The position numbers and the translations under genes are program-made. Source: an uncultured Eubacteriales bacterium (GTDB lineage Bacteria > Bacillota > Clostridia > Christensenellales > CAG-314). From it: 64,000 nt of DNA. Below are positions 3,540-51,499 of this stretch, piece after piece (positions within the stretch are counted from its first letter, which is position 1; the number at the start of each line of letters is the position of its first letter). The DNA lies in assembly GCA_948938605.1 (NCBI GenBank), contig CARAIG010000047.1, positions 982-64,981 on the forward strand. Direction: 5' to 3'. The notes under the pieces are model-generated. The model worked only from the letters and a program-made list of their open reading frames with translations. It was not told the DNA's origin and did not search any database.

Positions 3540-4727
3540 TTACTTGTTTAAATGTTTTTTTAAATCGTTTACTTTGTCAAGCTGTTCCCAAGGGAAATCA
3601 GTTCTTCCGAAATGTCCGTAACTTGCAGTAGCAAGGTAAATAGGACGCTGCAATTGGAATTTGTCGATAATGGCGCGGGGGCGCAAGTCGAATTCGTCCG
3701 ATATTATTGACGACATTACGCTATCCGAAACTTTGCCCGTACCGAAAGTGTTTACGTCTACCGAAACGGGTTTGCTGCGACCTATCGCATAAGAAATTTG
3801 CAGTTGGATTTTGTCCGCAAGTCCTGCCGCTACGATATTTTTGCAAATGTAACGCGCCATATACGTTGCCGAACGGTCTACCTTGGTAGGGTCCTTTCCG
3901 CTGAACGCGCCGCCGCCATGAGCGCAGTATCCGCCGTAAGTGTCGACAATGATTTTACGTCCAGTAAGACCGCTGTCGGCAGCGGGACCACCTATTTCGA
4001 ACCTGCCCGTCGGATTAATGTAATACTTTGTTTCTTCGTCCAACAAATCGAGCGGCACTACTTGACGTATTACAAGGTTAATCATATCCTTTGCTATCGT
4101 TGCGCTGTCAACACTGGAACTGTGCTGAGTGGACAAAACTATTGTGTCGACTCGGCAAGGCTTGTCGTTTTCGTCGTATTCGACGGTAACCTGACATTTG
4201 CCGTCGGGGCGAAGGTAATCAACAAGATTATATTTGCGCACTTCCGCAAGACGTTGACTTATTTTGTGCGCAAGCATAATAGCCATAGGCATATATTCGG
4301 GAGTTTCGTTGCAGGCATAACCGAACATCATTCCTTGGTCGCCTGCGCCGTACATATCCAGTATTTCGCCGCGGTTTTTGTATTCGTTGGAACGGTCTAC
4401 GCCGAGAGCAATGTCGGGCGACTGTTTGTCCAACGAAATTATAACTCCGCAACTGTCGGCGTCAAAACCGTATTTAGCGCGTGTGTAACCGATACTGCGT
4501 ACCGTATCGCGCACGATTGTTGCGTAATCCGTAACCGCAGTTGTTGTAATTTGTCCCATTACGAACACAGTACCGGTGCAGACCACAGTTTCGCACGCTA
4601 CGCGCGCGTCGGGATCCTTGGCTAAAATAGCGTCCAGTATCGCGTCGGATATTTGGTCGCACATTTTGTCGGGATGCCCTTCGGTTACGCTTTCGGACGT
4701 AAAAAATCTGTGCTTGGTGTTTTTCAT
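3540..4727 (-). CDS. metK: S-adenosylmethionine synthetase
   Basis: [37 protein letters not shown] and the [16 protein letters not shown] signatures. I place the start at internal Met45 of the track ORF (ATG 4727, RBS GGAGG at 4738-4742). The upstream 132 nt of the track ORF covers the riboswitch terminator. Confidence 0.95.
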
Positions 4728-4795
4728 TTTAATTTTTCCTCCGTCAAATAATTTGTTTGACGCAAAATGCGTCAAACCTATCGAAGGCGGGGATT

Positions 4796-4955
4796 GCAAC
4801 AAAAAGGTCTTGTCCATAGCAATAGACAAGACCGCAATTATCGCTTTTCGCCGTCCCATCTTTCAAGGTTGCCCCTTGCGGAATTTAGCACCTAACTTTA
4901 TTTTAGGTTGCTGTAACTTCACCGAGTCCGTCTCTCCGTTACTCTCGATAGGTTG
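4796..4955 (-). promoter_or_regulatory. SAM-I (S-box) riboswitch with its terminator expression platform, controlling metK
   Basis: The minus strand reads CTATCGAGAGTAACGGAGAGACGGACTCGGTGAAGTTACAGCAACC...GGTGCTAAATTCCGCAAGG...GAAAGATGGG. This matches the S-box core (ATCNAGAG..GGAGGGAC..GGCCC..GAAG..CAGCAACC..GGTGCTAAATCC..GAAAGAT). It is followed by the hairpin GGTCTTGTC/GACAAGACC (4806-4833) and a T-run. Confidence 0.88.
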
Positions 4956-13487: not shown

Positions 13488-14528
13488 ATGACTAAACGCA
13501 AATTATCTTTAATAATAATTGCAGCCGTTTTAGGCGCAATACTTATTGCCGTATCCGTTTGCGCAATTATAGCAAACAGCAAAAACGACAAAAGCCAGCC
13601 TGTCGAACAACTTGCTAGCTGGCAAAGTATGATTAAAGACGATGTTTTGCTTAAAGACGTTGTTATAGCAGGCGCGCACGACGCGGGAACAAAGGGAATA
13701 TCCTACCTTGCCGCAACGCAAGACAGAGATATTGCCGACTTGCTTAAATGCGGTACGCGCTATCTTGACTTGCGCGTTGCGTATTCCAAACAGAAACTGT
13801 TAATTTATCACGGACCGTTTAAGGGAATGAGTTTGGAAAGCGTAATTGACGACGTTAAGCAATTCCTTGTTGACAACACCAGCGAAAACATAATTTTAGA
13901 CTTCCAACACTTTGAAGAAAATGACACCGAAGCGCAAAACGAAACAATTAAACTTGTAGACGAACAATTAAAAGAAATGCTTGTAATAAACCTAACAGAC
14001 AAGTCAGACGTTGAATTTGTCGACAGTTTGACAATGGGCGACGTACGCGGTAAATGCCTTATTGTTTGGGGACGGACAAATGACGATATAATTTCAAAGA
14101 ATTACGTATTTCAACGTAACAATGATGACGGAAGCCGCACGAACAGTGTTTTACACTCCTTTTATTTTAGCAAGTACAACAAAAAAAGTTCGGCAAACTA
14201 CATTAAAGACGGATTGTCGCACTATTTGGGTTTGTACAAAGAACCGCAATACGGACAAGGACTTAGAATATTGCAAGGACAGTTGACGGACGGTATGTTT
14301 GTATTCGGCCCGCACTTTCGCGAAGCAACGCACACCGACAATATGAACGAATATCTTGACGGACTAAAAACAAGCCCCGACCTTGCATACATTAACATTG
14401 TAATACGCGACTTTATAACGCCGTCGAAAAATTGTTACGCGCTGCAATTAAACCTTGCTAAAAACACCGTAAAGACGGACAAAGTTGCGACATTCGAAAA
14501 AATGATTGCGGACACGTTGGGGAAATAA
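13488..14528 (+). CDS. Membrane-anchored PI-PLC X-domain (phosphatidylinositol-specific phospholipase C-like) phosphodiesterase
   Basis: VIAGAHDAG, GTRYLDLRV and LLIYHGP align with the IPGTHD / IRYIDIR / IYHGP motifs of Bacillus PI-PLC. There is an N-terminal transmembrane anchor. Confidence 0.75.
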   Translation: MTKRKLSLIIIAAVLGAILIAVSVCAIIANSKNDKSQPVEQLASWQSMIKDDVLLKDVVIAGAHDAGTKGISYLAATQDRDIADLLKCGTRYLDLRVAYSKQKLLIYHGPFKGMSLESVIDDVKQFLVDNTSENIILDFQHFEENDTEAQNETIKLVDEQLKEMLVINLTDKSDVEFVDSLTMGDVRGKCLIVWGRTNDDIISKNYVFQRNNDDGSRTNSVLHSFYFSKYNKKSSANYIKDGLSHYLGLYKEPQYGQGLRILQGQLTDGMFVFGPHFREATHTDNMNEYLDGLKTSPDLAYINIVIRDFITPSKNCYALQLNLAKNTVKTDKVATFEKMIADTLGK

Positions 14529-14547: not shown

Positions 14548-14593
14548 TAAAAACGCACCATTTTAGGAAAAATCCAAAATGATGCGTTTTTTA
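14548..14593. terminator. Bidirectional intrinsic terminator shared by the convergent PI-PLC and trkH transcription units
   Basis: Stem ACGCACCATTTT/AAAATGATGCGT, flanked by an A-run upstream and a T-run downstream. Confidence 0.6.
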
Positions 14594-14611
14594 ATGCGCA
14601 TTAAAATATAT

Positions 14612-15294
14612 GTCATCCTGAGCGAACGCAGTGAGTCGAAGGATCTAAGTGCCAACGGAATAAATCGTATATACCGTATTCTTAGATGTTTCGCAACATT
14701 CGCCGTCCTTTGGCGAAACTGCGCCTACGGCTCCGCTCAGGATGACATAATTGATGTTATGCTCAGGATGACATATATTTGGAACACGTAAAGCGTAATT
14801 GTGGTGGCATTTAATTCTGGATTGCTTCGCTAACGCTCGCAAAGACGTTACCAAGTAACAACCTGAGCCCGTAGATGGGTGCGGATACAAGACAAACGAA
14901 TAACCCGCAAAGGAAAAAACAATGCGGGCTAAAATTATATATTATGCGGTGGGCAAGAGTCTGCCCACCCTACGATGATGTTTAACGCAGTAGACGCGCC
15001 TTTTAAATTGCCTATTTTGCCCTAAGCCCGTAAAAACGAGCAAGAGAAGGCGGGTGCGGATATGACGACGGAAGCGTATTAGGTTTACGTGACTGCAATG
15101 TACGTTAAACATTTAATGACACATTTAAATCCTATTGATAATTCGTGTAAAACAACAAGTAAGGGCTAACTAAGCCCGTAGATGGGTGCGGATACAAGGC
15201 AAACGAATAGCCCGCTAGGAAGTGTATAAAGACATACACGACCGACGCGGGCTATGATGTTTAACGCAGTAGACGCGCCCATATACGGGCTTAG
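14612..15294. repeat. Palindromic repeat island A, a mosaic of extragenic palindrome modules colinear with island B
   Basis: Modules, in order: GTCATCCTGAGCGAACGCAGTGAGTCGAAGGATCT (14612-14646). CTTAGAT..TCGCAACATTCGCCGTCCTTTGGCGAAAC (14681-14719). GCTCAGGATGAC twice (14735, 14761). GGATTGCTTCGC.. (14819). Hairpin-element copies at 14864-15000 (degenerate, carrying an inserted GGTGGGCAAGAGTCTGCCCACC palindrome), 15022-~15120 (5' fragment) and 15170-15294 (intact). Confidence 0.85.
15170..15294. repeat. Intact ~125-nt long-hairpin element, copy A3, beginning 3 nt after the trkH stop codon
   Basis: CTAAGCCCGTA...TACGGGCTTAG closing stem, extended by ATGGGTGCG/CGCGCCCAT. Middle stem TAGCCCGC/GCGGGCTA. 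Apical stem GTGTAT-AAAGAC-ATACAC. Confidence 0.8.
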
Positions 15295-15297
15295 GAA

Positions 15298-16770
15298 TTA
15301 TTTTTTTATCCACGTTAAGGGGGACAGAGTCAACAATAAGGGGTAAATTTCCAGTCTGCCGAACATCATTGCAAACGTCATTGCCAGCTTGGACAGCCAA
15401 CTGTACATATAGCAACCGTTAGACGCAACTCCGAATGCAGGCCCGACGTTATTAACGCACGAAGCCGCAATTGAAATATTTGCTTCAACCGAAAGTTCGG
15501 GGTTGGGATCGAAACTTAAAATTACAAACAGCGCCGCTATTATAAACATATACAGCGCAAAGTAACTTGTAACGCCGTGCAAGGTTTCGTCCGTTACCGC
15601 CTTGCCTTCAAACTTGATTGCGTTGGCGTGACGGGGATGAATGATGCGTCGCAATTCCTTGCGTACAGCGCAGCACAGTAGCGCTATACGGGATATTTTA
15701 AGCCCGCCTGCGGTAGAACCTGCACAACCGCCCACAAACAGCAGTAAAAACAGCAAGCCTTTGGTTAATTGCGGAAGTTCGTTTATTGACGACGATGAAG
15801 GTATCGTGGAATAACCAGTTGTAGTTACAAAGGACGCCACTTGGAAAAACGCATGACGTATTCCGTCGTTTGCGCCTTGCGTAAAATTCATTTGGTTAGT
15901 AATGTTTATTGCTATTGCGGTTGTAAACACCACTATTATACCCGTATATATCCACAGTTCGCGCGACGAAAACGCCGAACGGAACTTGCGTATTAACATC
16001 AAAAAGTACAAGTTGAAGTTTACGCCGAACAACAACATAAATACCGTTATTATCCATTGACAAGCGGGATTGTACGAAGCAATGCTGTCGGCGTGTATGC
16101 CGAAACCGCCTGTACCCGCCGTACCGAACGAATGGGTTACGGCGTCGAACAACGGCATACCGGCAATTATCAACGCGATAATTTCCAAAACGGTAAGACC
16201 GACGTAAATAAGGTACAGTATTTTTGCGGTATTGCGCGCGCGGGGAACAATTTTGTCAACGGTAGGACCGGGCATTTCCGCACGTAAAATGTGCATACTG
16301 CGTTCGCTTGCGCCCGTCATAACCGCCATTACCAAAACTATTACTCCCATACCCCCTATCCAGTGGGTAAAACTCCGCCAAAACAGCAAACCTTTTGCCA
16401 TTGTTTCGATTTGCTCGCCTTGCAGTATGGTTGCGCCCGTTGTGGAAAATCCGCTTGTGGTTTCGAATAACGCGTCTATATATGACGGAATAGCTCCGCT
16501 TATAACAAAGGGCAATGCGCCTATTAGCGAAACGTACACCCACGACAGAGATACGATTATAAGCCCTTCCTTGGAAAAGAAAACGTTATTTTTAGGACGC
16601 AATGCAAACACGAGCACAACGCCTACAACTGCGCTTATACCTATCGTAACGGCAAATGCCCACCAACAGCTTTCCGTTAAACTTGCGGCAATAACCATTG
16701 GCAGTACCAACAGTGCGGCAAGCACCAACGCTACTTTGCCTAATGTGTTAAAAATTATGCGGTAGTTCAT
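15298..16770 (-). CDS. trkH: TrkH/KtrB-family potassium uptake membrane subunit
   Basis: 490 aa and polytopic, with repeated selectivity-filter-like GFSTTG, GTAGTGGFG, TTTGYS and STAGGLK segments. It lies 2 nt downstream of trkA. Confidence 0.9.
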   Translation of the reverse strand: MNYRIIFNTLGKVALVLAALLVLPMVIAASLTESCWWAFAVTIGISAVVGVVLVFALRPKNNVFFSKEGLIIVSLSWVYVSLIGALPFVISGAIPSYIDALFETTSGFSTTGATILQGEQIETMAKGLLFWRSFTHWIGGMGVIVLVMAVMTGASERSMHILRAEMPGPTVDKIVPRARNTAKILYLIYVGLTVLEIIALIIAGMPLFDAVTHSFGTAGTGGFGIHADSIASYNPACQWIITVFMLLFGVNFNLYFLMLIRKFRSAFSSRELWIYTGIIVVFTTAIAINITNQMNFTQGANDGIRHAFFQVASFVTTTGYSTIPSSSSINELPQLTKGLLFLLLFVGGCAGSTAGGLKISRIALLCCAVRKELRRIIHPRHANAIKFEGKAVTDETLHGVTSYFALYMFIIAALFVILSFDPNPELSVEANISIAASCVNNVGPAFGVASNGCYMYSWLSKLAMTFAMMFGRLEIYPLLLTLSPLTWIKK

Positions 16771-16772
16771 TG

Positions 16773-18134
16773 TTACCTCACAATTTCCGACAAGTCGTAC
16801 AAGTGCGAACCCATTGCAACGACTATTACGCGGTCGCCTATATTAATACTGTCCGAACCTTGGGGAATGATTGTTTCCCTGCCGCGGATAATTCCCGCAA
16901 TAATGAAGTTAGGTTTTAAATTTAAATCTTTAAGGGGAACGCCGATTATTGCGCTATCGGACAATACGGCAAATTCCAACGCTTCCGCCTTACCGTCCAT
17001 AAGGTTGTACATTGTTTCCACCTTGCTGGCAAGAGAATTGTCCAAAGCCCGCGCATAACGGGTTAACGTATTAGCAACAAACTTTTGCGGACAAACCGTT
17101 GTGTACAAACCCAGTTTTTCCGCAAGACTAATCATATTTTGATGACTTACTTTTGTTATTACCTTGGGGACTCGTTCGCTGTTGCAGTAAAAGGACATAA
17201 GGATATTTTCCTCATCGTTACCCGTTAAGGCAACAAAAGCCGAAGTTTGCCTAATGCCTTCCTCCCACAACAAGTCCTGATTTGTTCCGTCACCGCAAAT
17301 GACCGTTGTAGACGACGGCAATTTTTCGGCAATGACGGCACACTTTTCTTCGTCCTTTTCAATTATCTTAACGTTCAGTCCGTTACTTGCAAGCAATTTT
17401 GCAAGATAACACGCAACGGTACTTCCGCCCATAATTATTACGTCGTGTCCTTGTTTTTGCGCAAAGCCCGCGCCTTTTACGAATTTGTGCGAATCGCTGC
17501 GCTTAACCATAAAAGCGACTTTGTCTTCCACTTGAAGTTGAAAAGTACCTGTCGGAATATACACTTGGTCGTCACGTTGAACTACGCACGCAACAAACGG
17601 CACTGAACTTTTTTTACGGATATCCTGCAATGTTTTGTTGACAATGGGCGAATCGTCGTGAACGACTATTTCCAACAACTGCACCATTTTGCCTGCAAAG
17701 TTGTCTACATTTACTGCCGAAGGCAGTTTTAAAATGTCGTACAACGCTTGCGCCGTTAACAGTTCGGGGTTTAAAGACATTGACAAGTCCAATTCCTTTT
17801 TCAATATCTGCAAACTGTCGTCGTTATACTCCGTTTCGCGGATACGCGCAACCGTATACTTTGCCCCCATACGTTTTGCCAAAAAGCACGATAACATATT
17901 AACTTCGTCCGATTCGGTAACGGCAATAAACAAGTCTGTCTTGGACACTTCCGCTTGATTAAGCATTTCGGTAGAAGTAGCACTGCCGTAAATTGCCATT
18001 ACGTCAAATGTGTTGGTTATTTGTTCGATGACCTGAGGATCGTTGTCGATAGCGACAATGTCGTGACGCTCCTCCTGCATACTTTCCAAAATTGCTTTAC
18101 CGATTTTACCGCAACCTACTACGATAACTTTCAT
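16773..18134 (-). CDS. trkA: Trk system NAD-binding peripheral subunit with two RCK/TrkA-N domains
   Basis: MKVIVVGCGKIGKAI is the first Rossmann motif and VIIMGGSTVACYLAKLL is the second. 453 aa. Confidence 0.9.
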   Translation of the reverse strand: MKVIVVGCGKIGKAILESMQEERHDIVAIDNDPQVIEQITNTFDVMAIYGSATSTEMLNQAEVSKTDLFIAVTESDEVNMLSCFLAKRMGAKYTVARIRETEYNDDSLQILKKELDLSMSLNPELLTAQALYDILKLPSAVNVDNFAGKMVQLLEIVVHDDSPIVNKTLQDIRKKSSVPFVACVVQRDDQVYIPTGTFQLQVEDKVAFMVKRSDSHKFVKGAGFAQKQGHDVIIMGGSTVACYLAKLLASNGLNVKIIEKDEEKCAVIAEKLPSSTTVICGDGTNQDLLWEEGIRQTSAFVALTGNDEENILMSFYCNSERVPKVITKVSHQNMISLAEKLGLYTTVCPQKFVANTLTRYARALDNSLASKVETMYNLMDGKAEALEFAVLSDSAIIGVPLKDLNLKPNFIIAGIIRGRETIIPQGSDSINIGDRVIVVAMGSHLYDLSEIVR

Positions 18135-20935: not shown

Positions 20936-21015
20936 GTTAGCAACGTGAGAATATAACACTGTGAAGTTTAGGCAGTGTTATGTGTGGTTATTCGGCGCAA
21001 CTACGCACTCACAGT
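20936..21015. repeat. 80-nt CACTGT element, full copy 1
   Basis: GTTAGCAACGTGAGAATATAACACTGTGAAGTTTAGGCAGTGTTATGTGTGGTTATTCGGCGCAACTACGCACTCACAGT. It aligns end to end with 42851-42930. Confidence 0.8.
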
Positions 21016-21076: not shown

Positions 21077-22654
21077 TTATAAATTATTTTTTTCTTCAAG
21101 CGACTTAAAGTCGATTTTGGCAAGTTTGGTACGGGGTAAAGCGTCTAACACTTCAACAAAGGTCGGCACCGAATAACGTATTAAATGCGCTTTGCAATAG
21201 GATATAATCTGCGTTTCGACATCCGAACCGCTCATAGGCTGTTTTAACGACACGTACGCTTTAAGATACTGCTTGCCGTTTACCTTTGTACCTACCACGC
21301 AAACTTCTCGCACAAAAGGCAGTTGGGATATACAGTTTTCCACTTCGGACGGAAATACGTTTACTGCCGCTATTTTTACCATACGTTTTTTACGGTCGAC
21401 GACATATACGAAGCCGTTTTCGTCAACGTAACCCATATCGCCCGTTTTTATCCAGTGTCCGTCCTTGACGAACGAACCGTCGTCGTCCAAGTAACCCGAC
21501 ATAAGTCCGTTTGCAGTTAAAGCAATTTCACCGATTTCGCCCGTAGGCAAAACATTGCCTTGTTCGTCCCAAATTTCCACTTGACATCCGTCTATCGGAC
21601 GACCGCAACTTTCCTTTGCGTAATGGTCGTAGTTGTTAACCGCGCACACGCCGCACGTCTCGGTTAACCCGTAGCCCCGCATAATTTGCGCAGGACGTTT
21701 GGAATACTTTGCCAAAATGCCGTCCACTTGCTCGACAAGCTGCTCTGTCAAAACATCGCCGCCGCACCAAATAACGTCTAATTTGCCCATACGTTTGTGG
21801 TCGAAAGCGTTTGCGCGGAGCATTTTTTGTATCATTGCAGGCACTACCGCCCAAGCGGTTATGTTGTACTTGTTAAAGTAACGTTTTACAACCTTTATGT
21901 CATACTGCGGAATTAAAGCAAGATTGAACCCCGCAACAAACCCCGTATGCACCGAATTGCACAAGCCGTACGCGTGAAATACCGGCAAAGTGGTAAGATA
22001 GTAATTTGTCCCGTCGTTTGCGGGGTTGTACATATCCACTATCGTAGTTGCCGTACTGTTAAATGCAAAGTTGGATATTTTAACGATTTTGGGCTGTCCG
22101 CTTGTACCGCCGCTGTGCATATAGCACACGACGTCCTGTCCGTTTCCTGCAATGTCGGTTGGGGTTTTATCCTTGATTAAAGCCGCATACGTTTTAACGT
22201 CTTTAACACGCTTGCCTATTGCCTTGGCGTACAAGCCGTAAACGGGCTTGCGTAAGGTTACGTAGTCGGTAATGCTGCAACGCAAAAGCTGCACGTTGAG
22301 TTTTAAGAGAGGTCGTTCGTCCTTAACTAAAACATCGTAAAACAGCAACGCTTTGGATTTTGTAATTGTTATATTGTCGGCAAGCTCATCGACGGGCGTT
22401 AACGGGTGAACGAAACTTGCAATCAACCCTAACTTCGAACAAGCGTAAAAAGCCACTACGCTTTGCGGACACGTAGGCAAATATACCGTAATGACGTCAC
22501 CTTTAACAAAACCCAAATTCGTTAAACCGCGTGCAAAAGCGTCCACATCGCGCAAAAAACGCGACATAGGTATGGCGTGGTCGTAGTAAACTATTTTGCC
22601 GTCCTTTTTGCAACGGTTTAGCATAACTTCGTAACAAGTGTTCAATTTTGCCAT
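21077..22654 (-). CDS. AMP-dependent synthetase/ligase (long-chain fatty acid-CoA ligase-like)
   Basis: YMHSGGTSGQPKIV is the AMP-binding motif. GYGLTE, WIKTGDMGYVDENGFVYVVDRKK and a C-terminal PRTKLAKIDFK are also present. Confidence 0.85.
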   Translation of the reverse strand: MAKLNTCYEVMLNRCKKDGKIVYYDHAIPMSRFLRDVDAFARGLTNLGFVKGDVITVYLPTCPQSVVAFYACSKLGLIASFVHPLTPVDELADNITITKSKALLFYDVLVKDERPLLKLNVQLLRCSITDYVTLRKPVYGLYAKAIGKRVKDVKTYAALIKDKTPTDIAGNGQDVVCYMHSGGTSGQPKIVKISNFAFNSTATTIVDMYNPANDGTNYYLTTLPVFHAYGLCNSVHTGFVAGFNLALIPQYDIKVVKRYFNKYNITAWAVVPAMIQKMLRANAFDHKRMGKLDVIWCGGDVLTEQLVEQVDGILAKYSKRPAQIMRGYGLTETCGVCAVNNYDHYAKESCGRPIDGCQVEIWDEQGNVLPTGEIGEIALTANGLMSGYLDDDGSFVKDGHWIKTGDMGYVDENGFVYVVDRKKRMVKIAAVNVFPSEVENCISQLPFVREVCVVGTKVNGKQYLKAYVSLKQPMSGSDVETQIISYCKAHLIRYSVPTFVEVLDALPRTKLAKIDFKSLEEKNNL

Positions 22655-22704: not shown

Positions 22705-22738
22705 CAACTTAAAAGCCTTGACTGTACAAGTCAAGGCT
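22705..22738 (-). terminator. First intrinsic terminator downstream of the phosphoribosyltransferase (PRTase) gene, beyond repeat island B
   Basis: Stem AGCCTTGACT/AGTCAAGGCT followed by TTTTAAGTT on the minus strand. Confidence 0.6.
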
Positions 22739-22754
22739 TACGATTATGTTGGTT

Positions 22755-23175
22755 CTTAGATCCGTCGCAACATTCGCCGTCCTTTGGCGAAACATATCGA
22801 AACACAGTATGTACGATTTATCCTGTTGGTTCTTAGATCCTTCGACTACGCTCAGGATGACATAATGGATATTATTTTTCGCTCAGGATGACATATATTT
22901 TTAATGCGCAATGCGTAATGCATAATTGCGGTGACGTTTAGTTTGATTCCGGATTGCTTCGTCGCTACCGCTCCTCGCAATGACGAAAGAATACATATGT
23001 TAAATGCATTCGCAACTACGTTGCTCGGCTAAAGACGATTGGCATCCCGTTCTAAGCCCGTAGAAAGGGGTGGATGCTAGGCATACAAGTACGTGTGAGA
23101 GGAGCGTATACAGACATACGTGACTCGAACACGCACGGAGTATAACGACGCAGACGCCCCTTTATACGGGCTTAG
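22755..23175. repeat. Palindromic repeat island B, colinear with island A
   Basis: Modules, in order: CTTAGATCCGTCGCAACATTCGCCGTCCTTTGGCGAAAC (22755-22793). AGATCCTTCGACTACGCTCAGGATGAC (22835-22861). GCTCAGGATGACATATATTT (22881-22900). GGATTGCTTCGTCGCTACCGCTCCTCGCAATGACG (22951-22985). Hairpin element (23052-23175). Confidence 0.85.
23052..23175. repeat. Intact ~124-nt long-hairpin element, copy B; its closing stem contains the stop codon of the PRTase gene
   Basis: CTAAGCCCGTA...TACGGGCTTAG closing stem, extended by AAAGGGGTG/CGCCCCTTT. Apical stem GCGTAT-ACAGAC-ATACGT. The TAA stop (23172-23174) lies inside CTTAG. Confidence 0.8.
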
Positions 23176-23708
23176 AGAAGTGGGATTACGCCGAGATAGC
23201 AAATATCCTTCCGCTCGGCAGCCTTACCTTCGGCAAGCACAAAGCCTTTTTTGTGGATAATGCCCCCTGCCAAATTGACAAGTTCTTCAAGTCCTACAAG
23301 GCTGTTGCCTGTGGACACAACGTCGTCGATAATACCGACTTTTTTGCCTTTAAGCAGTTCGGCGTCGTGACGGGAAATATACAGTTTTTGTTCCGCGCCG
23401 GTTGTTATGCTGGACTTGATTGCTACTTCCAAGCCGTCCTGCATATACAACTTTTTAGATTTGCGCGCAACGGCATAAAACTTGTGCCCCAGTTCGCGCG
23501 CGATAACGTGCGTTAATTGAAGTCCTTTGCTTTCCGCAGTTAAAAGCACGTCGCAATCCGAAACAAGCTTAGCAAGTTCGCGACCGCAGTGTTCGGTCAT
23601 TTCAACATTGCCGTGAAGATTGAAAAACGCAATGTTTACTCCGCTAGGTAACGGAAGTATTGGCAAGTCGGCTTTGTAGCCGTTAAGGTCGACGGTAAAG
23701 TACTTCAT
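23172..23708 (-). CDS. Type I phosphoribosyltransferase family protein (adenine PRTase-like)
   Basis: The PRPP-binding loop is VGIIDDVVSTGNSL. 178 aa, and the overall layout resembles the Apt-like proteins of Firmicutes. Confidence 0.75.
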   Translation of the reverse strand: MKYFTVDLNGYKADLPILPLPSGVNIAFFNLHGNVEMTEHCGRELAKLVSDCDVLLTAESKGLQLTHVIARELGHKFYAVARKSKKLYMQDGLEVAIKSSITTGAEQKLYISRHDAELLKGKKVGIIDDVVSTGNSLVGLEELVNLAGGIIHKKGFVLAEGKAAERKDICYLGVIPLL

Positions 23709-29562: not shown

Positions 29563-29604
29563 GTTAGCAATGTGCAATTCGAACACTGTAAAGTTTAGAC
29601 AGCA
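29563..29604. repeat. CACTGT element, 5' half copy
   Basis: GTTAGCAATGTGCAATTCGAACACTGTAAAGTTTAGACAGCA. It matches the first half of the 20936 and 42851 copies. Confidence 0.7.
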
Positions 29605-40165: not shown

Positions 40166-40232
40166 TAAATACAATAAAAAACACTCCTTCAATCGCCACA
40201 CGAAATACTGCCTTGATGTGTCATTCATTGAC

Positions 40233-40299
40233 GAATCCTCCTGTGGTTATTTGTTCAGCTGCCGGGCTTGAACTCATTATACCACGGGAGGATTCTTTT
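40233..40299 (+). terminator. Long hairpin plus TTTT downstream of dut; a candidate terminator or structured RNA
   Basis: GAATCCTCCTGTGGT pairs with ACCACGGGAGGATTC over 15 bp. The one odd pair is a G-U wobble only on the plus-strand RNA. The loop is 33 nt with internal pairing, and TTTTG follows. Confidence 0.45.
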
Positions 40300-40355
40300 G
40301 CTCATCGGTTAACCTTCACGGAAACACCGAACTATCCGATGGTTTTCGGCACACC

Positions 40356-40391
40356 AAAAGGCACCGTGACTTTAATCACGGTGCCTTTTTA
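40356..40391. terminator. Bidirectional terminator between dut and the Fic remnant
   Basis: AAAA-GGCACCGTGA-ctttaa-TCACGGTGCC-TTTTT. Confidence 0.75.
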
Positions 40392-40418
40392 AGCGATTTG
40401 CTTTTGTACTTTACGACG

Positions 40419-40658
40419 TCAATATTGTATCTTGAAATAATCAAGGTAAAGTTTGAATTTGTCTTGCGCCGCAAGGCAAGTGTCCCGCAAATAACCACGC
40501 TCGTTTTGCCACTCCTTTAATCCGCGATAGTAAAACAGTTTTAATTCTTCGTCAATTATAAACGGAACGATATTATATTTTAAGCAATCCTTGAAAAGTA
40601 AAAGTCTGCCGATACGCCCGTTGCCGTCTTGAAATAAGTAAGTATGTTTATTTTCCAT
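40419..40658 (-). pseudogene. Fic/DOC-family remnant: the C-terminal 79 aa only, with a degenerate active-site motif
   Basis: MENKHTYLFQDGNGRIGRLLLFKDCLKYNIVPFIIDEELKLFYYRGLKEW matches the ...IHPFQDGNGRxGRLL... core of small Firmicute Fic proteins. The H-P of HPFxDGNGR is replaced by Y-L, and no in-frame N-terminal domain exists (a TGA lies 2 codons upstream). Confidence 0.6.
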
Positions 40659-40992
40659 AACTCATATATGCCAGTTAAATATTTGTCCGGTCGAATGTCA
40701 CAAAGCGACAGCGAAATATTTCCTTGAACACGTAAAAGCATACCGAGACTTTTCCTGATCTGTTTTAATACACAATCAGCAACACGATATATAATTATTT
40801 CGCAATTATATACAATTCTTCGTATTCTGATTGCGTAATTATTTTCTTTTCCAATAAAATTCGAATATGAATTTTAGTCAAACAATCATAGGTATTTATC
40901 ATTGCGTCAAAGTAAAATCTTAATTTGTTGACTAAAATTATTTTTTAACAACAGCACGATTTAAAATTTATTAAACAACAGCAATAATTTTG

Positions 40993-41021
40993 TTGCGTTT
41001 TGGAAAATAATGTGGTATGAT
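40993..41021 (+). promoter_or_regulatory. Extended -10 promoter for the TetR-antiporter operon
   Basis: TTGCGT, 17-nt spacer, TATGAT, preceded by TGG. It overlaps the track's ATG at 41017, which argues for the ATG at 41056 as the real start. Confidence 0.45.
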
Positions 41022-42835: not shown

Positions 42836-42930
42836 GCACTGTAAAGATTTGACAGCAATGTAACATTAGAACACTGTAAAGTTTTATGCAGTGCAATATG
42901 TTGTTATCTGCGTAACTACGCACTTACAGT
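42836..42930. repeat. CACTGT element: a 22-nt partial copy (42836-42857) overlapping a full 80-nt copy (42851-42930)
   Basis: GCACTGTAAAGATTTGACAGCA, then GACAGCAATGTAACATTAGAACACTGTAAAGTTTTATGCAGTGCAATATGTTGTTATCTGCGTAACTACGCACTTACAGT. Confidence 0.8.
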
Positions 42931-43631: not shown

Positions 43632-44495
43632 TTACTTTTTTAATTGCACTACTTTGCAGTTGCAGGGATACTTGCTGTCGGAAGTTATAATAACTTCCCC
43701 TATGCTGTCGGCTACAATCCTACCCGAACGGGGGTTTTTAACCGACACGATATTACCGACAACCGAAGCTTCCGCGTCGGAATACTCAAACGCCAAGTCG
43801 GTGTCAATCATTGTGCAATTGACAAGCGTTAAATTTTTGCAATAACACAACGGTTGCGTGCCGATAATTTTGCAATCTATTAACGTTAAGCCTTGCGAAT
43901 ACCAAGCAAGATATTCCCCCTTGACGACGCTGTTTTTAACCGTTACGTTTTGCGAATGCCAAAAGGCGTCCTTTGTATCCAGTACGCTGTTTTCTATAAC
44001 GACGTTTTGAACATATTGAAAGGAATATTTGCCTTTAAACTGCACGTTGCGCAGTTTTATATCCGTACCTATGAAAAACAGATATTCGCTTGAAATTTCG
44101 CTGTCGGCAATTTCCGCAAAATGACTTTTCCAACCGAATTCCGGAGATACGATTAGAGAATTGCCTATACGTATGTTGTTACATTCGCGCAGTGCCTTGA
44201 TGCCTAGCAATTGCGAGTTGTCGATTGTAACATCGTCGGAATACCACAATCCCGCACGACAGTTTTCCGTCAATACAACATTGTTCAATGTCACTCCTAC
44301 GTCGTGCCACAACGGGTAACGCAAGTTAAAACGACTGTCCGCAACAAATATGTTCCTTGCTTCCTTTAAAGCCGATTCGCCGTCTTCTACGCCGTCAAAC
44401 GCACAATTTACAATCCTTGTGTCGGTTGCGCCGTACAAGGCGCGTTCCTCGCCGAACGTTTGGTTTTGTACCGTGTTAATGTAAGATTTTTCCAT
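43632..44495 (-). CDS. DUF3737 family protein (right-handed beta-helix repeats)
   Basis: QNQTFGEERALYG...DGESALKE...RYPLWH...FQYVQNVVIENS...EYLAWYSQGLTLIDCKIIGTQPLCYCKNLTLVNC matches my recollection of DUF3737 proteins along the whole length. Confidence 0.7.
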   Translation of the reverse strand: MEKSYINTVQNQTFGEERALYGATDTRIVNCAFDGVEDGESALKEARNIFVADSRFNLRYPLWHDVGVTLNNVVLTENCRAGLWYSDDVTIDNSQLLGIKALRECNNIRIGNSLIVSPEFGWKSHFAEIADSEISSEYLFFIGTDIKLRNVQFKGKYSFQYVQNVVIENSVLDTKDAFWHSQNVTVKNSVVKGEYLAWYSQGLTLIDCKIIGTQPLCYCKNLTLVNCTMIDTDLAFEYSDAEASVVGNIVSVKNPRSGRIVADSIGEVIITSDSKYPCNCKVVQLKK

Positions 44496-46991: not shown

Positions 46992-47071
46992 TAAATACTA
47001 AATTCAACTTATACAAAGCTGTACTATGCGCATTATTTTACTTGCAAATATACAACTTAAAACGGAGAAAT

Positions 47072-48004
47072 ATGTTTAAACAAGCCTTAGAATTAATAAA
47101 AAAATACGACACAATCATTATACACCGTCACACAAATCCCGACGGCGATGCAATAGGCAGTCAAACGGGAATGCAACAGCTGCTGCAATGCAATTTCCCC
47201 CAAAAGTCGGTTTTTATTGTAGGCGACGACCCCAAAAGATACGGCTTTATGGATAACTGCGCACCGCAAACCGTAGCGGACGAAACTTACAAAGGCGCGC
47301 TTGCCATAATACTGGACACCTCGGTTAAATCGATGATTTCCGACGGACGTTACACCACTGCGGAAAAAACTTTGCGTTTTGACCACCACATCTACTGCGA
47401 AACGATAGCGGACGTTGACATTGTGGACAACACCTACGAAAGCTGCTGCGGACTTGTTGCCGACTTTGCATTACAAACGGGGCTTAAACTCAACCAAGCA
47501 TCGGCAAAAGCGTTGTTTACGGGAATGGTAACCGATAGCGGACGTTTCCGTTACGATGCGACAAACGCAAGGACGTTTAGGTTGGCTTCCGCCCTAATAG
47601 AGCAAGGCTTCGACACAAACGAGATATATGCAAACCTTTACGCCGACGACTTCGATATGATACTGCTGCGTGCGAAATACGTGCAAAAAATACGCTTTAC
47701 AAAGCATAACGTTGCATACATAATTACAACCAAGGACGAACTGCTTAGCACTCCCGCCGACGAATTTACCGTATCGCGCGGAATGGTAGGCGTAATGAGC
47801 GACATCCGCGGGGTAGACAGCTGGGTAAACTTTACCGAAACCGACCATGGCGTACTGTGCGAATTGCGCAGCAAAAAGTACAACATTAACCCCGTTGCCG
47901 TAAAATACGGCGGGGGCGGTCACGCAAAAGCCAGCGGCGCAACAATTAATGACTTGGATACCGCAATGTTAATGTTACAAGACTTGGATGAATTGAGCAA
48001 ATAA
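47072..48004 (+). CDS. nrnA: DHH/DHHA1 phosphoesterase: NrnA-type oligoribonuclease/pAp phosphatase, paralogue 1
   Basis: IIIHRHTNPDGDAIGS, DHH (RFDHHIY), GMVTDSGRFRY and GGGHAKASGA. Start at ATG 47072 (RBS GGAG); the track ORF starts at TTG 47042. Confidence 0.85.
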   Translation: MFKQALELIKKYDTIIIHRHTNPDGDAIGSQTGMQQLLQCNFPQKSVFIVGDDPKRYGFMDNCAPQTVADETYKGALAIILDTSVKSMISDGRYTTAEKTLRFDHHIYCETIADVDIVDNTYESCCGLVADFALQTGLKLNQASAKALFTGMVTDSGRFRYDATNARTFRLASALIEQGFDTNEIYANLYADDFDMILLRAKYVQKIRFTKHNVAYIITTKDELLSTPADEFTVSRGMVGVMSDIRGVDSWVNFTETDHGVLCELRSKKYNINPVAVKYGGGGHAKASGATINDLDTAMLMLQDLDELSK

Positions 48005-48023
48005 AATTTACGGAGTTAAATAT

Positions 48024-49010
48024 ATGACAGAACAATTTAAAACAATGAAAGCAATTTTAGACAAAATCAAGCAATACGACCGAATAATAATTACTCGGCA
48101 CGTGCGTCCCGACGGCGACGCAATAGGTTCGACAAAGGGCTTGGCGCGCATATTGCGGTTAACATACCCTAAAAAGGAAATTTACCTGCAAACAAACGAC
48201 GGCAGCGACTACCTTGCGTTTTTAGGCAAGGACGACGAACACATAGCCCCCGAACTGTACAAGGACGCATTGTTAATAGTTATCGACACCGCCACCGCCG
48301 ACAGAATTTCCAATAGCCATTACGACAAAGCGCGCGAAATAATTAAAATAGACCACCACATAGACATCAAGCCCTACGGCGACTTGTGCTGGATAGAGGA
48401 CTTGCGCAGTTCCGCTTGCGAAATGATTGCATATTTTTACCAAACTTTTAAAGACGAACTTAAAATCGACAAGGAAGCGGCAACCTACATCTTTTGCGGA
48501 ATGGTAACGGATTCCGGACGTTTCCGTTACGAATCGACAACCGGCGAAACATTGCGCCTTGCAAGCATGCTGCTCGACTGCGGAGTAGACACCGAAACGC
48601 TGTACTCCCACTTATACTTGGAGGACTTCGACTTCCTTAAATTCCAAGCATATGTATTCGAACAAATGCAAATTACAAAAAACGGCGTTGTACACTTGTA
48701 CGTAGACAACGCAATGCAACAAAAGTTTAACCTTACAACCGAGCAAGCAAGCGAAGCAATAAGTTTTCTTAAAGGCATAAAAGGTTGCATAGCACAACTG
48801 GCATTTATAGATATGCCCGACGGCACTATCCGCGTAAGGTTGCGCAGTCGCTTTATGACAATAAACCAACTTGCGGAAAAATACGGCGGTGGCGGACACC
48901 AATGCACTTGCGGAGCAACGTTGCACAACCCTGCCGAAATTGAGCCGATGCTTGACGACGCGGACAAAATGGTTGCCGACTATAAGGCAAACAACAAGGG
49001 TTGGTTATGA
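48024..49010 (+). CDS. nrnA: DHH/DHHA1 phosphoesterase: NrnA-type, paralogue 2
   Basis: IIITRHVRPDGDAIGS, KIDHHID, GMVTDSGRFRY and GGGHQCTCGA. The stop TGA overlaps the surE ATG as ATGA. Confidence 0.85.
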   Translation: MTEQFKTMKAILDKIKQYDRIIITRHVRPDGDAIGSTKGLARILRLTYPKKEIYLQTNDGSDYLAFLGKDDEHIAPELYKDALLIVIDTATADRISNSHYDKAREIIKIDHHIDIKPYGDLCWIEDLRSSACEMIAYFYQTFKDELKIDKEAATYIFCGMVTDSGRFRYESTTGETLRLASMLLDCGVDTETLYSHLYLEDFDFLKFQAYVFEQMQITKNGVVHLYVDNAMQQKFNLTTEQASEAISFLKGIKGCIAQLAFIDMPDGTIRVRLRSRFMTINQLAEKYGGGGHQCTCGATLHNPAEIEPMLDDADKMVADYKANNKGWL

Positions 49011-51295: not shown

Positions 51296-51499
51296 TCCGC
51301 AAACTCCTAAAATTCTTATAAATTCAAGCAAAAATGCCTGTAAATTAATTATAACACTAAGCAACAATTTGCGCAATAGGTAACGGTAAATTTAATAAAA
51401 ATTTACTCGTACTTGTTGTTAGCACAAAAATGCAATGCTTCTCAGTCAAAAGCAAATTATTAATCAAAACATCTAATGGGTACTTTTTCGGTTATTCAA

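Follow-up and report, generated by a model that had tools for sequence, protein, structure and literature searches.

Palindromic-repeat islands between stop codons and terminators in a Clostridia genome: probable lineage-specific mosaics with an ERIC-type hairpin at the gene-proximal end

The window analysed in this study is a 64-kb stretch of DNA from a Clostridia metagenome-assembled genome (MAG). It contains two repeat islands, 14612-15294 (island A) and 22755-23175 (island B), which are located downstream of trkH and of a phosphoribosyltransferase (PRTase) gene, respectively. A previous sequence-only reading had placed both islands between the stop codon of a minus-strand gene and the first terminator. 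This gene context proved to be as stated, with the stop codons at hairpin ends, but it had to be corrected for island A, which lies between two convergent genes and is closed by a bidirectional terminator. The genes and terminators are as follows.

13488-14528, plus strand: PI-PLC-like gene, convergent with trkH across island A.
14549-14591, no strand assigned: native hairpin resembling a bidirectional intrinsic terminator, which closes island A distal to trkH (terminator scan: 18-pair stem, then a T run).
15298-16770, minus strand: trkH, with its stop codon at 15298-15300, 3 nt from the end of hairpin A3.
22705-22738, minus strand: probable native terminator serving the PRTase transcription unit, at a present distance of ~430 nt from its stop codon (recognised by eye from a 10-bp stem and a short U tract).
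23172-23708, minus strand: PRTase gene, with its TAA stop codon (23172-23174) inside the end of hairpin B1.

The hairpin at 22705-22738 failed the U-tract rule of the terminator scan and was not flagged. Because the scan detected no convincing internal terminator within the islands, it is plausible that they are transcribed as a predicted 3' UTR of 0.45-0.7 kb.

The two islands contain the same modules in identical order, as the sequence-only reading had claimed; this was borne out by our own reading of the sequence, by a repeat finder (families D2, D7, D14, D17 and D19 cover the islands) and by pairwise alignment. In the 64-kb window, GTCATCCTGAGC occurs 5 times (0.05 expected), CTAAGCCCGTA 7 times (0.76 expected) and the 28-nt core of module 1 twice (0 expected). 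These motifs are confined to islands A and B, with the sole exception of a one-mismatch match to CTAAGCCCGTA at 34709, and no island module was found in the rest of the window. Module 5 is a hairpin of ~125 nt, the copies of which are listed further below. The other repeats are as follows.

14611-14649, plus strand: TGTC-tagged REP with an enlarged loop (TGTC-ATCCTGAG...CGAAGGAT-CTAAG), the 'inverted partner' of the sequence-only reading (sequence; matches the CGTC/TGTC REP description in PMC3733652).
14681-14719, plus strand: module 1 of island A, a short hairpin repeat with a TTCGCC/GGCGAA stem and a CTTAGAT end, outside the named classes (28-nt core).
14735-14780, minus strand: modules 2 and 3 of island A, a tandem pair of TGTC REP half-units (minus strand, GTCATCCTGAGC; motif count).
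14797-14809, plus strand: truncated GTAG REP remnant AATTGTGGTGGCA, common to island B (A/B spacer alignment; intact at the matching place in island C).
14817-14847, minus strand: module 4 of island A, a CGTC-tagged REP (CGTC-TTTGCGAG-CGTTAG-CGAAGCAA-T-CCA on the minus strand; tag and CCA tail as in PMC3733652).
14946-14974, minus strand: GTAG-tagged REP (GTAG-GGTGGGCAGACTCTTGCCCACC; the minus strand reads CGTAG-GGTGGGCAGACTCTTGCCCACC), inserted in hairpin A1 (sequence).
22755-22793, plus strand: module 1 of island B (repeat family D17).
22832-22862, minus strand: canonical TGTC-tagged REP (TGTC-ATCCTGAG-CGTAGT-CGAAGGAT-CTAAG), which includes module 2 (regex search, sequence).
22881-22900, minus strand: module 3 of island B, half a TGTC REP (repeat family D14).
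22924-22936, plus strand: truncated GTAG REP remnant AATTGCGGTGACG, homologous to 14797-14809 (alignment).
22950-22985, minus strand: module 4 of island B, a CGTC-tagged REP (CGTC-ATTGCGAG-...-CGAAGCAAT-CCG on the minus strand; sequence).

CGTC-tagged REPs, as described by Di Nocera, De Gregorio & Rocco (2013, PMC3733652), have an unpaired terminal CGTC (or TGTC/CCTC) tag, an 8-9-bp stem that starts with A-T pairs, a 4-5-nt loop and a short CCA-like tail; the paper reports them from five phyla, which do not include the Firmicutes, and states for REPs that their ends often provide stop codons. Our examination of the terminal tags found CGTC at 14847 and 22985 (minus strand) and TGTC at 14611 and 22862. 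The stems ATCCTGAG/CGAAGGAT and ATTGCGAG/CGAAGCAAT span eight positions, with six Watson-Crick pairs and a tandem G-A/A-G mismatch, the loops are 6 nt or much longer, and the tails are CCA, CCG or CTA. By the terminal tag, the AT start of the stem and the CCA-like tail, modules 2-4 and the inverted partner can be assigned to the CGTC/TGTC-tagged REPs. The impression that several modules resemble palindromes of unrelated phyla was thus sound, and a unit of the same type is present in a Rickettsiales MAG. Similarly, GGTGGGCA..TGCCCACC-CTAC is a GTAG-tagged REP, and its relative in L008 (GGAGCGCA..TGCGCTCC-CTAC) has a covarying stem. Searching both islands with the Rfam 15 families gave nothing relevant at E<=10, at either gathering or lenient thresholds. 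A BLASTN search of island A against plasmids and phages gave no match, and a literature search with literal GTCATCCTGAGC-type strings returned unrelated primers only.

Over 172 aligned columns, modules 1-4 of island A are 88% identical to those of island B. Because this identity continues through the inter-module spacers, the modules have apparently been copied between the two loci as a single block of ~170-240 nt. The spacing between module 4 and the hairpin differs between the two islands. A third island (island C), located downstream of dapB (L007/L008), was reached via a protein search with a spurious 70-aa ORF, which gave four candidates in all. The 28-nt core of module 1 is identical in islands A, B and C, and the 46-nt stretch of modules 2-3 is identical in islands A and C. 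In island C, modules 2-3 are followed by an intact GTAG REP, module 1, other palindromes and the hairpin, in that order. We also observed a putative outward promoter (TTGATG-17-TATATT) in modules 2-3 of islands A and C; it was rejected as a conserved feature because it is missing in island B.

The sequence-only reading took the fixed order to indicate a composite unit, in which modules 1-5 together would form a non-autonomous mobile element or a modular RNA and transpose as one. The identical order at two unlinked loci, the similarity through the spacers of modules 1-4 and the presence of CTTAGA-like sequences at both ends of islands B and C are consistent with this proposal, and its part concerning modules 1-4, which form one copied block, stands. 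However, the order in island C differs and includes extra palindromes, the hairpin occurs alone at two sites in sister species L009 and without modules 1-4 in many phyla, strain differences remove or replace single modules, and the distance from module 4 to the hairpin is not kept. Transposition of the whole island as one unit is therefore quite unlikely. A simple segmental duplication, or a mere stack of intrinsic terminators, would also produce similar tracts 8 kb apart and hairpins downstream of genes. However, the genes flanking the two islands are unrelated, contrary to the shared flanks that had been named as the outcome speaking for a duplication, a third island is present at dapB, no U tract follows the hairpins in either orientation, and the only terminator reported by the scan is the outer native one at 14549-14591. 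The unrelated flanks, the terminator scan and island C already refute this reading, to which we assign virtually no probability.

The hairpin copies were scored with covariance models. One of these, R2, was built from 86 metagenomic copies only and contains no window or enterobacterial sequences. The copies in the window are as follows.

14863-15015, plus strand: hairpin A1, ERIC-like, without the closing arm and with an internal insertion (the embedded REP) (model R1, 27 bits; alignment).
15022-15135, plus strand: hairpin A2, truncated in the window strain (13 bits).
15170-15294, plus strand: hairpin A3, a complete predicted ERIC-superfamily element, with its 3' end 3 nt from the trkH stop codon (-71.8 kcal/mol, z -11.7; R2, 92.7 bits).
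23052-23175, plus strand: hairpin B1, a complete predicted ERIC-superfamily element, the terminal C-TTA-G of which supplies the PRTase TAA stop codon (-66.2 kcal/mol, z -12.4; R2, 95.5 bits).

Hairpins A1 and A2 correspond to the two extra degenerate copies already reported in island A, which are real. In strains L002 and L003, the counterpart of A2 is intact (124 nt, 112-114 bits) and abuts the trkH stop codon. For elements of 124-127 nt, the folding energies range from -55 to -72 kcal/mol (z -9 to -12). The six copies found in this species have a common architecture, and 18 of its 40 pairs show compensatory changes. The hairpin ends in this species read C-TA-AGCCCGTA...TACGGGCT-TA-G. The terminal stems are different in the L009 copies and in those of most metagenomic lineages, and TA flanks are missing there. 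In 185,579 species genomes, the terminal-stem pattern CTAAGCCCGTA..TACGGGCTTAG matched only once, in a palindrome cluster of a Rickettsiales genome that is informative for the REPs; because the pattern thus recovered no hairpin copy, the terminal stem appears to be lineage-specific. This pattern had no match in viral contigs, nor did the terminal stem combined with GGTGCGGATA match in the metagenome search. A check of the TA flanks revealed no target-site duplication common to the lineages. IS630/Tc1-style insertion into CTAG with TA duplication (C-TA-..-TA-G, TAG to TAA) would suit this species well but was dropped as a general rule, since other lineages have no TA flanks. Because a common target duplication is missing and the terminal stems vary by lineage, the hairpin seems to be unlike a classical MITE defined by terminal inverted repeats. 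Sequence features led us to reject a hammerhead ribozyme as well as a group II intron domain V. As a Rho-independent terminator, the hairpin was rejected because B1 lacks a following U tract on both strands and A3 lacks one in the gene sense; on the plus strand, A3 is followed by a T run, which begins ~7 nt past the stem.

Strains of the same species differ in these repeats: single modules are lost (one 26-nt copy of modules 2-3 is missing in strain L003), hairpin copies are truncated or replaced, and the hairpin interior is swapped. Repeat turnover thus appears to be ongoing. In sister species, only 73-179 nt are present at both island sites and a terminator follows soon after the stop codon. 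In these species, whose PRTases show 86-89% identity, the PRTase and AMP-binding genes are 89-122 nt apart, a terminator lies ~17-27 nt past the PRTase stop codon, and trkH is followed by 73-179 nt; none of modules 1-4 was found at the corresponding trkH and PRTase sites. Because these sites are empty and the terminator is close to the stop codon, each island is a lineage-specific insertion into the spacer that separates the stop codon from the ancestral terminator. All 124 PRTase homologues among the matches listed are 177-178 aa in length, and therefore the protein end is unchanged despite the stop codon supplied by the hairpin.

ERIC/IRU/RU-1 elements were reportedly described by Sharples & Lloyd in 1990, Hulton et al. 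in 1991, De Gregorio et al. in 2005 and Wilson & Sharp in 2006. According to the covariance model, the ~125-nt hairpin is a member of this ERIC/IRU superfamily. Model R2 recognized five of the six enterobacterial ERICs, belonging to four genera (E. coli, Klebsiella, Enterobacter and Rahnella), at 23-42 bits, and missed one Citrobacter copy. The matches were full length and on one strand only, their boundaries agreed with BLAST, and the R2 search of 126 kb yielded no further match at E<=10. In the model alignment, the hairpins and ERIC have AAGGC, AGGAGCnUAC..GUAnGUGAC and AACGCAGCA in common. The ERIC core (the ERIC-PCR primer region, ..CCAGGAGCTTACATAAGTAAGTGACTGG..), which is present in all of 5426 E. 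coli genomes, was aligned with high posterior probability onto the apex of the hairpin family (GGAGCGTATACAGACATACGTGAC or GAAGTGTATAAAGACATACACGAC in the window). The metagenomic copies were collected by way of one apex motif, and the alignments A7 and A8 were fitted to the model. The Rfam families gave no match to six non-enteric hairpin copies.

A 2024 review gives the occurrence of ERIC as Enterobacteriaceae and Vibrionaceae, and the Clostridia MAG analysed here exceeds this stated host range. Metagenomic contigs of several phyla contain at least 145 hairpin copies, some of which neighbouring proteins anchor to Clostridia, Porphyromonas, Opitutae, and Delta- and Gammaproteobacteria; tandem arrays are present in some lineages. 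In the cross-phylum alignment, 92.9% of the cells are paired, compared with 59.8% in shuffles, and double changes were found in 38 of the 40 pairs, with the loop motifs conserved across phyla and the stems covarying. Two findings came as a surprise. In 38 copies (34 distinct sites), a convergent ORF has its stop codon <=5 nt from the 3' end of the hairpin, compared with 3 for the other end (binomial p ~1e-7). Furthermore, the better-folding strand is antisense to the abutted gene in all 90 of 90 copies, with a mean gap of 14 kcal/mol, and the same holds for the trkH and PRTase hairpins; this had not been foreseen by the sequence-only reading. Each hairpin has on average 3.8 G-U pairs on the sense strand and 1.8 on the other, and the folding asymmetry persists with DNA energy parameters. 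A small sample of enterobacterial ERICs showed mixed orientations.

One interpretation of these findings is that the hairpin is a functional cis-antisense RNA, transcribed from the better-folding ('sense') strand, that overlaps the gene 3' end and has a conserved protein partner. The uniform strand asymmetry, the larger number of G-U pairs and the retention of loop motifs across phyla while the stems covary are in line with this interpretation, as is a same-orientation match of Rfam RF02818 ('Vibrio antisense RNA AS5') to an E. coli ERIC, which at 46 bits stays below the gathering score. However, the hairpins in the window and in L009 have no conserved upstream promoter and no downstream terminator, enterobacterial ERICs occur in both orientations, and the asymmetry seen with DNA parameters does not single out RNA. 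We therefore consider an antisense RNA somewhat unlikely. In another interpretation, the hairpin is a mobile or recombination element that acts as single-stranded DNA, folds on one strand and is placed at gene ends by a dedicated enzyme. Its geometry is comparable to that of REPIN/RAYT, IS200/IS605 ends and integron attC sites, folding is strand-specific, placement at stop codons is precise and orientation-specific without target duplication, hairpin interiors are swapped cassette-fashion at the same site, and tandem arrays and GTAG REPs within the same islands also fit. However, the 64-kb window contains no gene for a Y1/HUH transposase, an integrase or another recombinase, the hairpin ends in the gene sense (CTCTAAG.. 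and ..GCTTAGA) do not contain the attC core sites RYYYAAC/GTTRRRY, the sense strand is on the leading-strand template as judged from GC skew, whereas IS608-type elements favour another orientation, and the hairpins abut syntenic housekeeping genes rather than cassettes. Such an element is unlikely in our assessment.

The islands are best explained overall as lineage-specific palindromic-repeat mosaics in stop-to-terminator spacers, with the ERIC-type hairpin in the gene-proximal position, and this is probably the correct explanation. Non-autonomous palindromic repeats would have accumulated in the short spacers between the stop codons of trkH (island A) and the PRTase gene (island B) and their ancestral terminators. 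The gene-proximal end of each island would be the ~125-nt ERIC/IRU long hairpin, antisense to the gene and touching or overlapping its stop codon, and the rest would consist of CGTC/TGTC-tagged REPs, the GTAG-tagged REP (intact or truncated) and one short hairpin repeat. Islands A and B would be colinear because modules 1-4 were block-copied and because the hairpin itself has a strong preference for the stop-codon side. The islands may be co-transcribed with the upstream gene as far as the old terminator, and terminating ribosomes might partly melt the stop-abutting hairpin, which could tune mRNA 3'-end stability or translation termination. Such mRNA effects are known from the ERICs of Yersinia and the REPs of E. 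coli. The antisense location of the better-folding strand is not easily reconciled with selection on an mRNA-sense hairpin.

More tentatively, the hairpin may be an ancient pan-bacterial structured element, with an ERIC superfamily extending over Clostridia, Bacteroidota, Verrucomicrobiota, and Delta- and Gammaproteobacteria, that has a conserved trans-acting partner; we regard this as possible, though on balance doubtful. A partner is suggested because the loop motifs are kept, the stems covary, folding is restricted to one strand and the orientation at stop codons is single. Candidates are a single-strand recombinase/transposase with gene ends as its targets, or else a factor that binds RNA or is linked to the ribosome. 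If this is true, the 35-year-old ERIC repeats would gain a testable function.

The islands as such are ordinary: they are akin to the clusters of REP/BIME and ERIC repeats in E. coli, and they account for the spurious small ORFs called within them. ERIC, which has long been used in ERIC-PCR typing, would have structural relatives in gut Clostridia and in contigs of at least four further phylum-level groups, and CGTC-tagged REPs would be extended to the Firmicutes. The sharp antisense stop-codon preference and the universal strand folding asymmetry are both unexplained by the current "MITE" description, and together they provide handles for identifying a mobilising or binding factor and for testing a translation-coupled control of mRNA 3' ends. 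In addition, the covariance model could improve the annotation of long "empty" 3' spacers in MAGs.

Comparison with known systems places the repeats as follows. Integron attC sites resemble the hairpin in geometry only, being imperfect palindromes of 60-140 nt that directly follow a stop codon and whose functional folded strand is the complement of the coding strand. Membership was rejected on the core-site sequence and the absence of an integrase from the window: R''/R' core sites are missing, the genes are syntenic housekeeping genes, and the apex is conserved here but variable in attC. BIMEs of E. coli are likewise combinations of extragenic palindromes and conserved linker motifs, the order of which recurs at several 3' intergenic sites; however, the motifs found here are unrelated to BIME motifs and the mosaic holds an ERIC-type long hairpin, so that this is an analogy and not membership. 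The element at 14946-14974 (minus strand) shares with GTAG-tagged REPs/REPINs, which are mobilised by RAYTs, the GTAG tag and the GC-rich stem-loop next to it, the stem of which covaries in a second copy, but the copies here are single and not inverted doublets; no RAYT (Y1 transposase) gene was found among the 44 ORFs of the window. The CGTC-tagged REPs, including Rickettsia RPE-4/RPE-6 and Neisseria dRS3, share with our modules the CGTC/TGTC tag, a stem starting with AT and an unpaired CCA/CTA tail, and both are clustered and located downstream of ORFs; the Firmicutes host, the loops of >=6 nt and the tandem G-A/A-G mismatch are differences. Compared with ERIC/IRU/RU-1 of Enterobacteriaceae and Vibrionaceae, the hairpin differs in its Clostridia host, in a terminal stem that is distinct and varies by lineage, in that the TA target duplication which flanks the terminal inverted repeats of ERIC is not demonstrable, in the strong bias of non-enteric copies to an antisense position at the stop codon and in the tandem arrays of some lineages. 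It nevertheless shares with them an imperfect palindrome of ~125-127 nt that forms one long hairpin, the core motifs AAGG, GGAGCnUAC..GUAnGUGAC and AACGCAG, an intergenic location beside coding regions and the presence of internal insertions in some copies.

The palindromic islands A (14612-15294) and B (22755-23175), each made up of short repeats (modules 1-4) and a ~125-nt hairpin (module 5), have their modules in common, arranged in an identical order, a point on which direct reading of the sequence, the repeat finder (families D2, D7, D14, D17 and D19 cover the islands) and pairwise alignment agree. In motif counts, GTCATCCTGAGC (at most one mismatch) occurred 5 times versus 0.05 expected, the hairpin end CTAAGCCCGTA 7 times versus 0.76, and the 28-nt core of module 1 twice versus 0. 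These counts greatly exceed chance, and all of the matches lie within the two islands except for one of CTAAGCCCGTA with one mismatch at 34709. The genes at the islands are as follows.

13488-14528, plus strand: PI-PLC-like gene, flanking island A
15298-16770, minus strand: trkH, flanking island A
16773-18134, minus strand: trkA
21077-22654, minus strand: AMP-binding enzyme gene, flanking island B
23172-23708, minus strand: phosphoribosyltransferase (PRTase) gene, flanking island B

Therefore, the genes on either side of island A converge, and island B separates two genes in tandem on the minus strand. The hairpin of island A ends 3 nt from the trkH stop, and the TAA stop of the PRTase gene (23172-23174) lies inside the terminal CTTAG of the hairpin.

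Di Nocera et al. (2013, PMC3733652) define two REP superfamilies, each by an unpaired terminal tag. In their definition, the CGTC-tagged REP carries CGTC, or often TGTC, as its tag, followed by a stem whose first pairs are A-T, a small loop and a tail resembling CCA; it is listed for five phyla, Firmicutes not among them. By their tags, the short modules read as follows.

Module 4 of island A, minus strand: CGTC-TTTGCGAG-CGTTAG-CGAAGCAA-T-CCA, a CGTC-tagged REP
Module 4 of island B, minus strand: CGTC-ATTGCGAG-...-CGAAGCAAT-CCG, a CGTC-tagged REP
Module-2-containing unit of island B, minus strand: TGTC-ATCCTGAG-CGTAGT-CGAAGGAT-CTAAG, the TGTC form of the CGTC-tagged REP
GGTGGGCA(A)GAGTCTGCCCACC-CTAC: a GTAG-tagged REP in reverse reading

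The inverted partner in island A (14611-14649) is a unit like the module-2-containing TGTC unit of island B but with a longer loop, and modules 2 and 3 are half-units of the TGTC REP. Module 1, another short hairpin repeat, was assigned to no REP class. A second GTAG REP, GGAGCGCA..TGCGCTCC-CTAC, whose stem covaries, is present in L008, a locus from this genome or one very close to it. TGTC units of the type TGTCACCCTGAGCCTGTCGAAGGGT were found in four copies in a Rickettsiales MAG and also at two other metagenomic loci, supporting the earlier view that unrelated phyla share palindromes of this kind. ORFs of 50-85 aa called across REP modules (P0001-P0004; window 14579-14791, plus strand, and L007:5361-5513) are artefacts of the repeats, not real proteins. 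In the Rickettsiales MAG (CANKYC010000018.1), L006:1700-1900 is a dense palindromic cluster of TGTCACCCTGAGCCTGTCGAAGGGT units and GTCACCCTAAGCCCGTATTG repeats, with which the window shares both the TGTC form of REP and the string CTAAGCCCGTA.

For the source species, an uncultured Clostridia bacterium, there are several MAGs and numerous metagenome contigs, and PRTase homologues at 86-89% identity carry the names Clostridiales or Clostridia bacterium. In two sister species, the spacer between the PRTase and AMP-binding enzyme genes is 122 nt (L009) or 89 nt (L010-L012), the spacers downstream of trkH measure 179 and 73 nt, and an intrinsic terminator lies shortly downstream of both the PRTase and trkH stops. 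None of modules 1-4 was found in these 20-kb loci. This comparison shows that each island was inserted between a stop codon and an ancestral terminator, and it explains the succession of stop codon, island and first terminator, which had been read correctly from the sequence alone. Because every one of the 124 PRTase homologues listed has a length of 177-178 aa, the insertion occurred exactly at the stop codon of this gene.

The two complete copies of module 5 (15170-15294 and 23052-23175) each form a single long hairpin (-71.8 and -66.2 kcal/mol; z -11.7 and -12.4). This architecture is retained in hairpins from other strains and loci, with compensatory changes at 18 of 40 pairs in an alignment of only six sequences. 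A covariance model built from six in-species copies (R1) detected two hairpins in sister species L009 with the same apex and different terminal stems, one overlapping a small gene's TGA stop and the second lying 2 nt past the trkA stop. In a metagenome scan, the apex motif GGGAGCGTAC-N4-7-GTACGTGACC matched at least 120 loci, in which model searches identified at least 86 and then at least 59 further hairpins, nearly all full length (120-127 nt) and, among the matches listed, with a GC content of 38-73%. In the 86-member alignment of the matches listed, which was fitted to the model itself, 92.9% of cells were paired versus 59.8% in shuffles, double changes occurred at 38 of 40 pairs, and the covariation score was 0.68 versus 0.15 in shuffles and 0.07-0.10 with slid partners.

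The apex resembles the ERIC-PCR primer region, a sequence that, when checked, was present in 5426 of 5426 E. coli genomes (median, 9 places each). A second model (R2), trained on metagenomic copies only, gave the following scores.

Window copies: 92.7 and 95.5 bits
E. coli chromosomal ERIC: 33.5 bits
ERICs on Klebsiella, Enterobacter, Rahnella and E. coli plasmids: 23-42 bits

The ERIC matches were full length, on a single strand only and with the same boundaries as those from BLAST; one of the six ERICs tested, that of Citrobacter, was not detected. The alignment revealed AAGGC, AGGAGCnUAC..GUAnGUGAC and AACGCAGCA as motifs common to the hairpins and ERIC. On the basis of these matches and shared motifs, module 5 is a member of the ERIC/IRU superfamily.

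Across modules 1-4, islands A and B are 88% identical over 172 columns, spacers included, and they share a truncated GTAG-REP remnant; therefore, these modules were copied as a unit. The composite unit proposed earlier thus holds for this block, and other observations speak against the whole island being fixed. In island C, a third island 3' of dapB (L007/L008) that came to light through a spurious 50-aa ORF, modules 2-3 come first, an intact GTAG REP second and module 1 third, before other palindromes and finally the hairpin; the hairpin is also found alone at other sites, and strains differ by single modules, one 26-nt half-REP being absent from strain L003. At the trkH stop, strains L002 and L003 have an intact second hairpin, where the window has half of that hairpin, ~80 nt and another copy. 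At the PRTase site, the hairpins of L003 (3601-3727) and the window (23052-23175) are 73% identical versus 95-97% for the flanks; the 11-nt ends and the fold are retained and the interior is largely different, which suggests replacement by another family member. These differences show modular turnover between strains. The islands are best filed as BIME-like mosaics of known repeat kinds, namely ERIC-type hairpins and CGTC- and GTAG-tagged REPs.

The sense strand of the hairpin was set by the apex GGGAGC..GUGACC. Among the matches listed, the 3' end lies no more than 5 nt from the stop of a convergent ORF of at least 150 codons in 38 of 145 copies (34 of 123 distinct sites after removal of duplicates), versus only 3 copies with the 5' end at the stop of a co-directional ORF, at least one of these ORFs being spurious (binomial p ~1e-7). 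The stop codon often lies within the terminal stem, with all three stop codons represented. The hairpin follows a placement rule at stop codons. Among the matches listed, the sense strand is also the better-folding one in 90 of 90 copies, with a mean advantage of 14 kcal/mol over the complement; its internal loops are purine-rich and its G-U pairs are double in number. The asymmetry is also seen with DNA parameters. The better-folding strand is thus antisense to the abutted gene. In a small sample of enterobacterial ERICs, orientations were mixed.

Tandem hairpin arrays are present in some lineages. On three contigs anchored to Acutalibacteraceae/Oscillospiraceae (L035:3926-4487, minus strand; L092:4553-5117; L124:6168-6732), four ERIC-like hairpins, repeating every 147 nt, begin 4 nt past the dnaK stop. 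A Verrucomicrobia/Opitutae contig (L085:3371-13036) carries five ERIC-like hairpins in 14 kb in both orientations; a head-to-head pair occupies the 277-nt spacer of two co-directional genes, and one hairpin ends 2-3 nt from a downstream ORF start.

The terminator scan found no convincing internal terminator in the islands, which would be co-transcribed up to the old terminators. Terminating ribosomes may partly open the hairpin abutting the stop codon and thereby modulate 3'-end decay or termination, as has been described for ERIC in Yersinia; a second parallel comes from E. coli, in the REPs that lie at most ~15 nt from stop codons. The folding asymmetry favours a different reading, with a sense-strand RNA or an intermediate of single-strand DNA. 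None of the 44 window ORFs encodes a transposase, RAYT, integrase or reverse transcriptase; by GC skew, the leading strand is the minus strand.

Several other features of the window were identified. A SAM (S-box) riboswitch (4853-4954, minus strand; 73 bits) lies directly 5' of the S-adenosylmethionine synthetase ORF (3540-4859, minus strand). Because it covers the initial 7 nt of this ORF, which was called at its maximal length, the actual start codon is probably further downstream. The 31-nt motif AGCAATGTnnnnTTnGAACACTGTAAAGTTT has four copies with 68-100% identity (20939-20969, 29566-29596, 42854-42884 and 43807-43837), at least two of them just 5' of minus-strand genes, including an ECF sigma factor gene, and may be a shared operator or promoter. 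At 47042-49010 (plus strand), two neighbouring paralogous DHH/DHHA1 phosphoesterase genes, ~70-74% identical in DNA blocks (repeat families D4, D8 and D11), precede surE. The repeats at 50310-50945 have a period of 12 nt (CCGCCTTGRTTNCC) and lie within a 491-aa ORF (49901-51376, minus strand) with no Pfam match, suggesting a low-complexity Gly/Asn/Gln-rich protein. The 851 nt at 40166-41016, with a terminator-like hairpin and without repeat modules or any ORF of at least 110 aa, possibly contain a decayed gene.

No Rfam family covers the non-enteric hairpins. RF02818 (Vibrio antisense RNA AS5) matched the E. coli ERIC at L133:1459-1582 below its gathering score, as RF02766 (Yersinia sRNA 49) also did on ERIC, the elements matched by the two being this one and L136:1199-1342 on a Klebsiella plasmid; both 'sRNA' families appear to be ERIC elements. 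Contig taxonomy was anchored by exact-sequence cluster look-up of neighbouring proteins. In reviews, ERIC figures as a MITE of 127 bp found in Enterobacteriaceae and Vibrionaceae; the hairpin-bearing contigs span a much wider range, with anchors to Acutalibacteraceae/Oscillospiraceae, another Clostridia bacterium, Porphyromonas, Verrucomicrobia/Opitutae, a deltaproteobacterium and a non-enteric gammaproteobacterium. The ERIC superfamily, cross-phylum, structurally conserved, strand-asymmetric and positioned at stop codons, merits follow-up.
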